Program-made: the position numbers
Assembly (NCBI GenBank): GCA_963666275.2
Contig: CAXXOA010000001.1
Coordinates: 1,376,001 to 1,440,000, forward strand
DNA length: 64,000 nt
Reading direction: 5' to 3'
Origin: Oceanispirochaeta sp.
GTDB taxonomy: Bacteria > Spirochaetota > Spirochaetia > DSM-2461
In this document: one piece after another, positions 36,001-39,000 of the stretch
Numbering within the stretch: position 1 is the stretch's first letter
Layout: each line of letters opens with the position of its first letter

Positions 36001-39000
36001 CTATCGGACTGAAAAAAGAGGGGGTAGAGTTCAATGCCCTGGACGGTCAGGACTCCAAAATCTTCATTATGACCATTTCACCCAAAAATGCGGCTGGTCC
36101 CCATATTCAGTTTCTCTCGTCGATCAGCGCCATTATGAATAAACCCGGTTTTACCGAAGAACTGCTCAATTGTGCTTCCGAAGCGGAAGTGAAGGAACTT
36201 CTGGTTCAGGCCGGAAAGGAAAGCAGCAAAGAGAAAACTCTCTGATATTGAAGGGAATTCCCCCTGAAAATAAAAAAGCCTCCGGACCAGATCCCGGAGG
36301 CTTTTCTTTATTCGACACCCGGCAGGAAATTAATCCTGCACATCTTCAGGGATGCGGCCTCTTTTTTTGAGAGACACAGCCCAGTAGATAAACGGGGTAT
36401 CCATGGCAGCGACAATCCATTTAATCACATAGGTGGAGAGGAGTATCTCTATCAGCACGGGAACCGGAAAAGAACCGGCAAAAGCAACCAGAGTGAAAAC
36501 AACCGAATCCAGAAGCTGACTCACCATGGTGCTGGCATTATTTCTGAGCCAGATCAGTCTGGTGGAGGGCCATTTCTTTTTCCAGAACTGGTAAGCCCAG
36601 ACATCGTGGGTCTGGGAGACTCCGAAGGCCAGAAGGCTGGCAAAAGCAATCCTGGGCATGAAGCCGAAAATATCCTTTAAAGGACTGTTGGCCCAGTCAT
36701 CGCCGGCGGGAATGAACCACAGGGCAAACTGGAAAAGCAGGGTTGAGGCAATCAGAGCCATAAATCCCATAAGCACCGCTTTGGACGCTGATTTCTTTCC
36801 ATAGTTTTCCGACAGTATATCCGTCACCAGAAAGGATGAGGCATAGACAATATTTCCCAGGGTGGCACTGATGCCGAACAGGTCGATCAGTTTGAGTACC
36901 TGTATGTTGGCAACAATAACAGCCAGGGGAATCCAGATGTAGAGCCCGGTCTTTCCCAGGACTCTGTAAAAAAGTAGAATTGAGAGGAAGTTCACCAGCA
37001 GCATGGCGAACCATAGAAGTTCATTCATTATAGAATATCTCCCAGTTTTGATTCTGAACCGGAGCCCTGGGGCCCGGAGCAAAAGGCGGGTAAAATCTGG
37101 CACCGCCTGTGCGGATTAACAATCCGAGGATCCATAATAATGACTCTCTCAGGGTCTGGCAAGAGTCAGATGAGGGCTTTTGGGGAGGAATCGGTATAAA
37201 AATATGCCCTGAACCGAGGGGGCCGGGCCCTCCCGGCCGTTATCCGGATCCTGTCTCAGGGAGAAACCCTTCCCGCCAAGACCCGTTCCCGGGCATCTGT
37301 CAGGTAATTATTTTTTCCTATAGCACTTATGTGCCTTTGACAGAGAGCCTTGATTCTCATATGATACAGGGATATTTTGTGCCAGCTACCCACAAATCGA
37401 ACTATTTATATTTTAAGGAAAATTATTGAAATTTACAGAACTGAATCTGAATGAGGCCATTCAGAAAGCAATTGCTGGTATGGGTTTTGAAGAACCCACG
37501 CCCATTCAGGCAAAATCCATTCCGACGGTATTGGAGTCGGAAAATGATATTATCGGTCTGGCTCAGACCGGAACAGGAAAAACCGCAGCCTTCGGACTGC
37601 CTCTCCTTCAGAAAACCGATCTTCAGAGCTCTGCAACACAGGGAGTTATCCTCTGTCCCACAAGAGAACTCTGCCTTCAGATTTATAATGAAATGTCCAA
37701 CTTTGGAAAGTATTCCAAAGGTTTGAATATGACCCCGGTTTACGGCGGTCAGGATATGGGAGCCCAGATCCGATCCATTAAAAGGGGAAGTCAGATTCTG
37801 ATAGCCACCCCGGGTCGCCTTGCAGACCTGATTAAACGGGGTGTCGCCCGACTTGAAGATGTCCGCTATCTGGTTCTGGATGAAGCAGACATCATGCTGA
37901 ATATGGGGTTCCGGGATGAACTGGATCAGATCCTCTCATCTCTTCCCAGAGAAAGACAGACCCTGCTTTTTTCTGCCACCATGCCGAAAGAAGTCGCCCG
38001 GATCGCCAGAGAGTACATGCAGGATCCCTCTGAAATAACGGTGGGCGATAAAAATGTCGGAACAGACACGATTGAACACTACTACTATCTTGTCCAGCAG
38101 AGAGACAGGTACAACGCTCTGAAACGGCTTGTGGATTTCAATCCGGATATATACGGACTGATTTTCTGCCGGACCCGGGCGGATACCCAGATCATTGCGG
38201 ATAAAATGCTCAAAGACGGGTATAACGTGGATGCCCTCCATGGTGATATGTCCCAGCAGCAGCGGGAATATGTGATGAAGAAATTCCGTGATCAGAGCCT
38301 CCAGCTCCTTGTGGCTACGGATATTGCCGCCAGAGGACTGGATGTGAACAATCTGACTCACGTTATTCACTATGAACTTCCCGATGAAACAGAAGCCTAT
38401 AACCATAGAAGCGGCAGAACCGGACGTGCCGGTCGCAGGGGAACTTCCTGTGCCATCATCAATATGAGAGAAAAATACAAGATCAAAAGGATTGAAAACA
38501 TCCTGGGTCGAAAAATTCTCCAGGCACCCGTTCCTCTGGGTGAGGATATCTGTGAGCAGCAGCTGATGCATCTGATTGACCGTGTGCATAACGTAGTGGT
38601 TGACGAAGAGCAGATCGCTCCCTTTGTGGAAATCATCGAGGATAAGCTGAAAGGTCTGAACAGGCAGACCCTGCTGAAACATTTTATCTCTCTGGAATTC
38701 AACCGTTTTCTCCAGTATTACGGTAACGAACCGGATCTGATGCCTATCAGGGCTGAAAGGACAAGAGACTCCCGTGACAGGGACGGCGGCAGGAGAGGAA
38801 ACAGCCGGGACGGTGACTGGAAGAAGAGGGATGATAATATCCGCTATACCCACATCAATCTGAATCTGGGTCATAAAGACAGGATTACGCCTCCCCATCT
38901 GATCAGTCTCATCAACCGCAATACCAAAGGAACTCAGGTTCCCATCGGTCGGATTGATATCGGTCCCACCAAGTCGTCTATCCAGGTGGCTTCCGAGTTT

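Follow-up and report, generated by a model that had tools for sequence, protein, structure and literature searches.

The pocket of class I preQ1 riboswitches (preQ1-I) has been described in several studies. The specificity cytosine immediately precedes the P1 3' strand, and the base before it is A in types II and III and U in type I (PMC11625349). U6 and the closing G-C pair form the edge and the floor of the pocket (PMC11625349). The A-rich tract of L3 lines the P1 minor groove and supplies a ligand-contacting A (PMC11625349, PMC10622847). In the crystallised type II aptamer of Thermoanaerobacter tengcongensis (Tte), loop and L3 read UCGCAGUAAC and UUAACAAAAC (PMC10639078, PMC7641330). L2 of preQ1-I is described as flexible or disordered (PMC7641330), and in the type III leader of E. 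coli yhhQ the linker from P1 to the poly-A tract is variable in length and sequence (PMC10622847). The transporter YhhQ is reported to import both preQ0 and preQ1 (PMC10622847).

The window analysed here is a 64,000-nucleotide stretch of an Oceanispirochaeta sp. genome. It contains a leader of about 105 nt on the minus strand (37029-37134), which is flanked by a sigma-70-like promoter and yhhQ. Very likely, this leader belongs to the class I preQ1 riboswitches, among them to the 'AC' kind and nearest to type II; it would control yhhQ translation, with its small H-type pseudoknot enlarged at three permissive sites.

Anatomy and conservation of the yhhQ leader

All features of the leader lie on the minus strand. 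The promoter (37134-37162) consists of a -35 box TTGCCA (37162-37157), a 17-nt spacer and a -10 box TATTAT (37139-37134), with 10 of 12 consensus matches, and the upstream sequences of the other loci of the genus can be read with the same layout. Its position would place the transcript start a few bases ahead of the 5' hairpin P0, CGGAUU-GUU-AAUCCG (37112-37126), whose GUU loop keeps its sequence across the genus, as does most of the stem. P1 pairs GGCGG (37103-37107), the last G of which is the presumed pocket-floor G (G5 equivalent), with CCGCC (37085-37089). Between the two strands lie L1, UG (37101-37102), with a U in 13/13 sequences that would be the equivalent of the ligand-contacting U6; the invariant P2 5' strand CCAG (37097-37100), the anti-Shine-Dalgarno side of the putative pseudoknot; and L2, AUUUUAC (37090-37096), ending in AC, with C37090 as the presumed specificity cytosine. 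The variable linker part of L3 holds a hairpin (37052-37084; core stem 37077-37059; -16.5 kcal/mol, z -3.1), and the conserved 3' part of L3 is the A-rich tract AAUCAAAA (37046-37053). The P2 3' strand CUGG (37045-37042), complementary to CCAG, overlaps the Shine-Dalgarno sequence GGGAG (37043-37039). AAAACUGGGAG is invariant here in 11/11 genomes, and the start codon follows 10 nt on. The P1-to-P2' span in the window is 66 nt, longer than the about 34-45 nt of a very small aptamer with short L2 and L3. No terminator was found in the leader. The downstream gene (36330-37028, ATG at 37028-37026) encodes a queuosine-precursor transporter of 232 aa (Vut_1 family, PF02592, E 8.1e-51) with the N-terminus MNELLW common to its homologues.

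A yhhQ gene is present in 11/11 Oceanispirochaeta genomes, and GGTGCCAG and AAAACTGGGAG occur upstream of it in each. The MAFFT alignment A1 of the genus leaders has 29 invariant columns. A covariance model built for this study, R1, matched exactly once per genome in 11/11 genus members (E 6.5e-18 to 7.3e-8) and in none of 27 genomes from the other five genera of the order. Inspection of the yhhQ orthologues of these five genera by eye revealed no such leader at 17 of 19 loci; one of the others was masked, and one was a paralogue with a UC-type leader.

Pairs were counted over 13 sequences, namely the 11 genus members, L018 (a Victivallales MAG) and L033 (Desulfopila), in an alignment fitted to the model. 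In this alignment, 93.9% of cells were paired, compared with 21-54% when partners were slid. Seven pairs change on both sides, five of the six in P0 and two in P1. In P0, all 11 genus rows have G/U/U in the loop, and one pair is broken in each of G001 and G005. P1 is 91% paired. Its top two pairs are G-C in 13/13 sequences, and pair 3 covaries (CG/UG/UA), with a C.A mismatch in two genomes (L008, L010). CCAG and CUGG are complementary throughout (first pair in 12/12 cells with letters, the other three in 13/13), and since these four pairs never vary among the 13 sequences, P2 gains no support from covariation. The position of the leader, its restriction to the genus, the 29 invariant columns, the pairing of the helices and the invariance of the pseudoknot had all been put forward in an earlier note, and the present analysis reproduces them.

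Ten of the 11 genus genomes carry an embedded L3 hairpin of 33-49 nt, with unrelated sequences at the same site; it is absent from G002. Each of these inserts folds better than its shuffled versions, with z between -2.1 and -5.7; no more than 7 in 200 shuffles did equally well. An insert of 24-27 nt in L2 is found in 4/11 genomes, as the earlier note had claimed, but its description as a hairpin holds clearly for only one of the four (z -2.7; the others -0.6 to -1.5). Across the genus, L3 extends over 11-51 nt and L2 over 6-29 nt. These two insert-bearing sites, the L3 linker and L2, coincide with those reported as variable or flexible. Outside the genus, L170, L171 and L130 have P0-like hairpins in front of P1 that differ in sequence, and the related leader L047 has an insertion of roughly 140 nt in L2 that resembles an invasion by repeat hairpins. 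In the literature searched, the L3 of preQ1-I was nowhere described as holding an insertion or an embedded hairpin, and the alignments of McCown et al. (2014) may include insert-bearing representatives. Among the papers listed, none treats Oceanispirochaeta together with preQ1 riboswitches, and nothing relevant was found on a P0 stem, helix or hairpin with preQ1. Roth et al. are said to have described a P0 stem in 2007.

Compact relatives and the reach of profile searches

The hallmarks of class I, as listed from PMC11625349 and PMC7641330, occur in 13/13 sequences. AC precedes the P1 3' strand and a U follows the 5' strand, P1 is closed by a G-C pair, an A tract leads into P2', and P2' overlaps the Shine-Dalgarno sequence. 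AAAA(A)C stands directly before P2' in all 13, with at least three A before the C. The pattern GGCGGU-NN-CAG...ACCCGCC...AAAACUGG matched 51 loci (one genome per species). The Shine-Dalgarno sequence directly follows CUGG in 46 of them, and a YhhQ N-terminus lies downstream in 26. L3 measures 9 nt in 41, one locus is an Oceanispirochaeta leader with an L3 of 37 nt, and five look like chance matches in coding DNA. The 24 core nucleotides recur, with their order kept, in 46 compact leaders of other phyla. A compact leader of the same kind was also found at 34 of the 78 closest YhhQ loci outside the genus. The loop and L3 of such compact relatives are almost letter-identical to those of the crystallised Tte aptamer: the leaders of L026 and L028 read UCGCAGUUAC and UUAACAAAAC.

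Forms between the compact and the expanded leaders exist. L134 and L145 (Desulforhopalus) combine UGCCAG with an L2 of 6 nt and an L3 of 11 nt, L018 carries UGCCAG and an 11-nt L3 before yhhQ, and L033 has UACCAG and an L3 of 13 nt. G002, the genus member without any insert (L3 11 nt), was counted as an intermediate form. With the same UGCCAG, L3 lengths are graded from 9 through 11 and 13 to 37 nt and more. A strict pattern scan returned seven loci: two from the genus, L018 as the real one outside it, and four chance-like matches (R1 at most 12.2 bits, without yhhQ).

Profile searches did not recover this relationship. None of the Rfam preQ1 families (RF00522, RF01054, RF02680) was matched at E<=10 over 551 nt of the window, as the earlier note had reported for the region, nor at the ten other genus loci or on the insert-free minimal form L004; the gathering cut-off of RF00522, 39 bits, was reached by neither the window leader nor the genus loci. 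This missing match is uninformative, because RF00522 gives the compact relatives only 11.5-21.9 bits: 11.5 bits for L026 and 17.6-21.9 bits for 3/20 loci, with 0/20 at the cut-off. Its alignments to these compact leaders, although below the cut-off, cover their full length and keep the register. The model did not match L134, a compact UGCCAG leader. When 20 related loci were searched at E<=1 and at the gathering cut-off, no preQ1 match appeared, the search space being too large for a 45-nt model; the sub-threshold RF00522 scores above came from narrower searches. A whole-genome search with RF00522 in five genomes with compact leaders yielded none at the known leaders among 150 scored of up to 2224 candidates.

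The models built here behaved similarly. With R2, made from 23 compact leaders, expanded and intermediate forms were not significant (best in-register match 12.8 bits, E 0.42). With R1, only two genus loci scored among 80 related loci, plus L033 at 13.4 bits, and the compact leaders were not found. As no profile connects expanded and compact leaders with a significant score, their link rests on in-register motifs, intermediates and gene context. A weak match of freshwater-2 (RF02980) to L134 (20.2 bits, cut-off 49.9), absent on the window, was taken as a hairpin-plus-Shine-Dalgarno likeness. RF00522 has a blind spot for the expanded variant and for dozens of compact leaders of yhhQ and other genes in Spirochaetota, Thermodesulfobacteriota, Bacillota and Bacteroidota.

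Salvage context, proposed mechanism and alternatives

Queuosine-synthesis genes had been noted as lacking, and for QueC, QueF and, in G000, QueD the searches agree: QueC is found in 0/11 genus genomes (one 27-bit partial match in a 527-aa ORF of G007) and QueF in 0/11, TGT is present in 11/11, and G000 has QueA but no QueD. The absence of QueC and QueF together with TGT and, in G000, QueA fits preQ1 salvage. With QueA and TGT and no QueF, preQ1 would be the base that the cell can use. Regulated preQ1 salvage would be documented in a genus without de novo synthesis. The trees link the genus only weakly to the NCCAG-type compact loci. FastTree, run on 45 YhhQ proteins, groups the genus clade with four such loci (local support 88), and in a quick IQ-TREE run without these four the genus lies beside leaderless Desulfocapsaceae genes (SH-aLRT 90).

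By homology with class I, the ligand pocket is predicted on top of P1 (GGCGG/CCGCC). Its elements would be the G-C pair that closes P1, the U immediately 3' of the P1 5' strand, the C of the AC motif and the final A of AAAA. Upon binding of preQ1, the presumed ligand, loop CCAG would pair with CUGG and bury the first two G of GGGAG. Such burial would lower importer synthesis when the base is abundant, and the leader would act as an OFF switch. The L3 hairpin, placed between the P1 base and the A tract, might stack below P1, in a topology resembling that of P4 in class II; the further additions would be the optional insert in the flexible L2 and the 5'-terminal hairpin P0. The analysis supports the earlier proposal that a translational riboswitch of the preQ1 type acts on a salvage transporter, in an organism lacking QueC, QueD and QueF.

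The proposal of a new architecture and a fourth consensus fared differently. A genuinely new preQ1 class, i.e., an independent fold convergent on class I, would account for the missing Rfam preQ1 match, a size about three times that of class I, an embedded hairpin as in class II and profile models that do not bridge to the compact leaders. However, the core positions all match the class I pocket and topology as given in PMC11625349. P1, the U of L1, CAG, ACCCGCC and AAAACUGG are common to the 46 compact leaders, identical in P1 sequence and pocket positions and in the same order, and the supposedly invariant UGCCAG also occurs in Desulforhopalus and the Victivallales MAG. The graded L3 lengths and the insert-free G002 argue against independent origin as well, RF00522 also fails on accepted-looking type II leaders, and no fourth class was named in the literature searched. 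A new class is extremely improbable, and the earlier note's own alternative, a very divergent preQ1-I variant, is the better reading. Insertions within the loops of so small an aptamer could have crippled sensing, so that a decayed or re-purposed leader would be kept as a constitutive ribosome-binding structure or for mRNA stability. The poor structure of three of the four L2 inserts, the insertion in L047 and the C.A mismatch in P1 of two genomes would agree with this. The pocket and pseudoknot positions, nevertheless, are invariant in 11/11 species despite complete turnover of spacers and insert sequences, the inserts occur only at sites reported as variable or flexible (PMC10622847, PMC7641330), and regulation is still useful because the organism depends on salvage. 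Decay is therefore quite unlikely.

Two other alternatives concern the ligand and the 5' hairpin. A class I scaffold with a shifted preference (e.g., preQ0, queuine or another 7-deazapurine) might result from L1 UG and the longer L2, given the G in L1 in place of the Tte C, the 6-8 nt of L2 compared with 3-5 nt in 41 compact leaders, the lack of QueF and the reported import of preQ0 by YhhQ (PMC10622847). Against such a shift, no pocket element has changed (specificity C, U, A and floor G-C pair), the QueA and TGT complement points to preQ1, and compact UGCCAG forms precede ordinary yhhQ genes, which makes it very unlikely. P0 could also be a DNA operator for a repressor, or the leader could be controlled by a protein or sRNA: CGGATT-GTT-AATCCG forms a perfect palindrome, located roughly at +1 to +20 a short way past the -10 box, and is conserved in loop and stem beyond pairing needs, with one pair broken in each of two genomes. 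Its 11-nt core, however, occurs only twice in the 5.27-Mb genome, about as expected by chance, and the sole other copy lies within a coding region, so that an operator regulon was rejected. No regulator gene is adjacent, symmetric changes keep the pairing, unrelated 5' hairpins occupy the same place in L170, L171 and L130, and the idea concerns P0 only and leaves the pseudoknot core unexplained. We consider it highly improbable. Finally, the L3 hairpin, stacked under P1, and the conserved P0 may act as a functional scaffold at the P1 base that alters folding kinetics or ligand preference. The leader would then be a natural hybrid, with the pocket of class I set in an HLout topology like that of class II, adapted to a strict preQ1 auxotroph. 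This is possible but unlikely.

Comparison with known preQ1 riboswitches

The enlarged class I aptamer proposed here adds no new ligand class and no new riboswitch class. It suggests, nonetheless, that the smallest riboswitch fold tolerates whole hairpins in L3 and L2, with natural examples, and it is relevant to the origin of HLout forms (class II, for example) by growth of H-type pseudoknot aptamers.

The closest described system is type II of preQ1-I (RF00522; T. tengcongensis, Bacillus subtilis). Common to both are the order P1-L1-P2-L2-P1'-L3-P2', a 5-bp G/C-rich P1 followed by U, an AC preceding its 3' strand, the A tract before P2', the link to queuosine genes and a P2' over the first Shine-Dalgarno bases, which points to translational control. 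The differences lie mainly in the loops. L3 is 35-51 nt long, with a hairpin, in the ten insert-bearing genomes (11 nt in G002), compared with about 9 nt in type II. L2 has 6-7 nt, or 26-29 nt with an insert, as opposed to 3-5 nt. L1 is UG and not UC, the G replacing the Tte C of the ceiling triple; P2 consists of four Watson-Crick pairs (CCAG/CUGG), a conserved 5' hairpin is present, and RF00522 gives no score.

Type III, represented by the E. coli yhhQ leader, shares the gene family, AC before P1', four to five conserved A, a variable linker to the P1 base and its ending in AAUC (PMC10622847), as well as a canonical P2 that covers the Shine-Dalgarno sequence. In contrast, P1 of type III is followed by UU, its loop is rich in pyrimidines, its Shine-Dalgarno sequence is AAGG, and the type is reported to be almost confined to Pseudomonadota (PMC11625349), whereas the present leaders have UG, CCAG and GGGAG, belong to Spirochaetota and hold a whole hairpin in the linker. 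The preQ1-III consensus (RF02680) is not recognisable at E<=10. With preQ1-II (RF01054, queT leaders of Bacillota), the leader has no likeness in sequence or pocket and no Rfam match, gene and phylum differ, and class II binds by a different (gamma) mode (PMC11625349). The two are alike, however, in carrying a hairpin within the strand leading across to the Shine-Dalgarno helix (HLout topology), in the 5' hairpin, which is optional in class II, and in the Shine-Dalgarno sequence within the last helix.

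Anatomy and conservation of the yhhQ leader

The yhhQ gene of the window (Vut_1/YhhQ; 36330-37028, minus strand; PF02592, E 8.1e-51) has a leader roughly 105 nt long on the same strand. Directly upstream of the leader lies a sigma-70-like promoter (TTGCCA, 17 nt, TATTAT; 37162-37134, minus strand), and its 5'-most hairpin, P0 (CGGAUU-GUU-AAUCCG, 37126-37112), is located at the predicted mRNA 5' end. The strands of P1 follow (GGCGG, 37107-37103; CCGCC, 37089-37085), enclosing the loop UG-CCAG-AUUUUAC. A hairpin inserted in loop L3 (37084-37052) stands 3' of P1, and AAUCAAAA separates it from CUGG (37045-37042), which overlaps GGGAG. 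All these elements are on the minus strand. The ATG start of yhhQ lies 10 nt beyond GGGAG/CUGG, and no terminator-like site was found within the leader. From a GTG within P1 (37101-37103, minus strand), yhhQ could be read with 25 additional in-frame codons (ORF 36330-37103). As each member of the genus has an upstream open frame of a different length (235-307 aa), this GTG is no conserved start.

YhhQ was found in 11/11 genomes of the genus, and all 11 upstream regions contain GGUGCCAG and AAAACUGGGAG. R1, a covariance model of the expanded, window-type leader, gave exactly one match in each of these genomes and none in 27 genomes of the order's other five genera. In the MAFFT alignment 29 columns are invariant, the number stated in the earlier note. 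In an alignment of 13 sequences fitted to the model, 93.9% of the cells are paired versus 21-54% with slid partners, and both partners have changed in five pairs of P0 and in two of P1. The four pairs of the pseudoknot are invariant, as had been reported, and covariation in P2 is absent. An anchor-based parse showed CG, UG or UA at P1 pair 3, with a C.A mismatch in two genomes. Ten of the 11 genomes carry an L3 insert; one member, G002, is free of any insert. The L3 inserts are unrelated in sequence across species, yet all fold better than their own shuffles (z -2.1 to -5.7). Hairpin insertions of about 24 nt had also been described in four genomes; an L2 insert is indeed present in 4/11, but it is clearly hairpin-like in only one. 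The leader described in the earlier note was thus recovered in every point that was repeated, and it is a real, conserved riboswitch candidate.

Proposed control and queuosine context

By homology, binding of preQ1 would complete the stack between P1 and P2. CCAG would then pair with CUGG and hide the first two G of GGGAG, so that yhhQ translation would drop. Control is placed at translation since no terminator lies downstream. As for P0, Desulforhopalus and one Phototrophicaceae MAG have hairpins of unrelated sequence at its position. A role of P0 as operator of a regulon was not supported: its 11-nt core has only one further copy in the genome, within a coding region. A 14-nt exact copy of P0 (CGGATTGTTAATCC) lies outside the window at C1:765954-765967 of G000, the genome holding the window (L099:2455-2468), inside an ORF of 288 aa encoded by the opposite strand, and is probably due to chance.

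TGT is present in 11/11 genus genomes. QueF was found in 0/11, and so was QueC, save for a 27-bit partial match in a 527-aa ORF of G007. G000 has QueA; neither QueD nor QueG was found there. The sole QueH-like signal in G000, a partial match of 25.5 bits covering profile positions 8-95, falls within a 434-aa ORF at C1:1444930-1445208, just past the window end; no clear enzyme for the final step of queuosine synthesis was thus found in G000. By this gene content, the cell should be able to use imported preQ1 and unable to make preQ1 or reduce preQ0. The gene set fits preQ1 feedback on the importer YhhQ.

Compact relatives and origin

The 80 closest YhhQ loci were fetched from one-genome-per-species contigs, and their upstream regions were read. 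A compact leader that shares its plan and most of its letters with the window element occurs in 34 of the 78 non-genus loci, for instance in Desulfotignum (GGCGG-UCACAG-C-AC-CCGCC-UUAAC-AAAAC-UGG-AGG). In L026 and L028, both Spirochaetia MAGs, the leader is GGCGG-UCGCAGUUAC-CCGCC-UUAACAAAAC, and the T. tengcongensis type II preQ1-I aptamer has UCGCAGUAAC and UUAACAAAAC at the matching places in the excerpts consulted (PMC10639078, PMC7641330). A pattern of the shared letters (GGCGGU-NN-CAG, ACCCGCC, AAAACUGG) matched 51 loci. The SD follows CUGG immediately in 46 of them, L3 measures 9 nt in 41, and a YhhQ N-terminus lies downstream in 26; five appear to be chance matches in coding DNA, and one is an Oceanispirochaeta leader (L3 37 nt). 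Intermediate forms were found in two Desulforhopalus genomes (UGCCAG, L3 11 nt), a Desulfopila MAG (UACCAG, L3 13 nt) and, 5' of yhhQ, a Victivallales MAG (UGCCAG, L3 11 nt). These intermediates and the insert-free G002 bridge the gap between compact and expanded leaders in sequence. R2, a covariance model built from 23 compact leaders, did not significantly recover expanded or intermediate forms, and R1 did not recover compact ones; no profile score thus connects the two groups.

In Bacillota MAGs (L100, L101, L105, L107, L110, L124-L126, L132, L141, L144, L147, L149), the same GGCGG-type compact leader precedes ORFs of a membrane-protein family distinct from YhhQ, sharing an N-terminal (F/I)SP(L/I)(F/Y)L motif. 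Upstream of yhhQ in a Spirochaetales MAG (L047:200-400), a canonical-looking leader (GGCGGUCGUAGC ... CCCGCC-UCAUCAAAAC-UACGGAG), with G instead of A before the specificity C, is interrupted in L2 by about 140 nt folding as three strong hairpins; either invasion by a repeat element or an extreme expansion of L2 could account for this. Four genus members have a conserved leader at the divergent DEAD-box helicase gene, with a stem AACCGG...CCGGUU, an A-rich tract ending in AAAACUAAGGA and a TTG start. It gave weak R2 matches (L005:3190-3260, L008:3160-3225 and L009:3190-3250, plus strand; L010:468-540, minus strand). The window homologue starts at 37426 (plus strand), and its leader looks different.

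Support from the YhhQ protein trees for a link to the compact loci is weak. FastTree joined the genus to four NCCAG-type compact loci (support 88); a quick IQ-TREE run without these four placed it beside leaderless Desulfocapsaceae genes (90). Unlike in the genus, yhhQ orthologues in other genera of the order (L151-L168) start within or just past the upstream coding region, operon-style, and by eye 17 of 19 have no leader, one being masked. The exception, in a sister genus of the same family (L169, genome G019), is a yhhQ paralogue at 39% identity. The roughly 60 nt preceding it contain a preQ1-I leader of compact, UC-type (type I-like) form (P1 CGCAG/CUGCG), whose tail, GAAUCAAAACUAGGAG, is nearly identical to that of the window element. 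Given the tree placement and the leaderless sister genera, gene and leader may have been acquired laterally as a unit, or lost in the sister genera.

Probable assignment to preQ1 class I

The earlier note proposed a new architecture and, as no Rfam preQ1 family matched, a fourth preQ1 consensus. Indeed, the Rfam search at E<=10 returned no preQ1 family on the leader. RF00522, whose consensus, as printed, is UC-type (type I), aligns with the compact L026 leader at full length and in register at only 11.5 bits. Its best scores on compact loci were 17.6-21.9 bits, in 3/20, and 0/20 passed the cut-off of 39 bits. Since RF00522 also misses compact class I-like leaders, the lack of an Rfam match does not set the window element apart from class I. 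In Desulforhopalus vacuolatus (L134:95-168), a weak, sub-threshold freshwater-2 match (RF02980, 20.2 bits, cut-off 49.9) runs from the 5' hairpin through the P1 region and SD to the start codon; the window has no such match. Among the papers searched, which did not include the chief comparative work of McCown et al. (2014), none names a fourth preQ1 class or describes hairpin inserts in class I L3 or L2.

Class I aptamers, in the sections of PMC11625349 consulted, are H-type pseudoknots in which the P1 3' strand follows a UC dinucleotide in type I and an AC in types II and III; the C of this dinucleotide pairs with preQ1. The pocket has the G-C pair that closes P1 as its floor, the ligand edge is read by a U from L1 together with an A from the A-rich L3, and P2 includes SD bases (PMC11625349). 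All these features were found in 13/13 sequences. Together with the compact relatives and intermediates, they argue against a new class; the riboswitch candidate appears instead to be a new class I variant, enlarged in size. Points against the class I reading are the missing profile link to the compact leaders, the lack of P2 covariation, the weak protein trees and the leaderless orthologues in the other genera.

The inserts of the genus leader occupy the two class I sites described as permissive; L2 is disordered or flexible in the crystal structures covered in the consulted part of PMC7641330. The L3 hairpin begins 0-2 nt past P1 and could stack beneath it, like P4 of class II. P4 influences binding kinetics, according to the same excerpt of PMC11625349, and by analogy a similar kinetic role might be guessed for the L3 hairpin.
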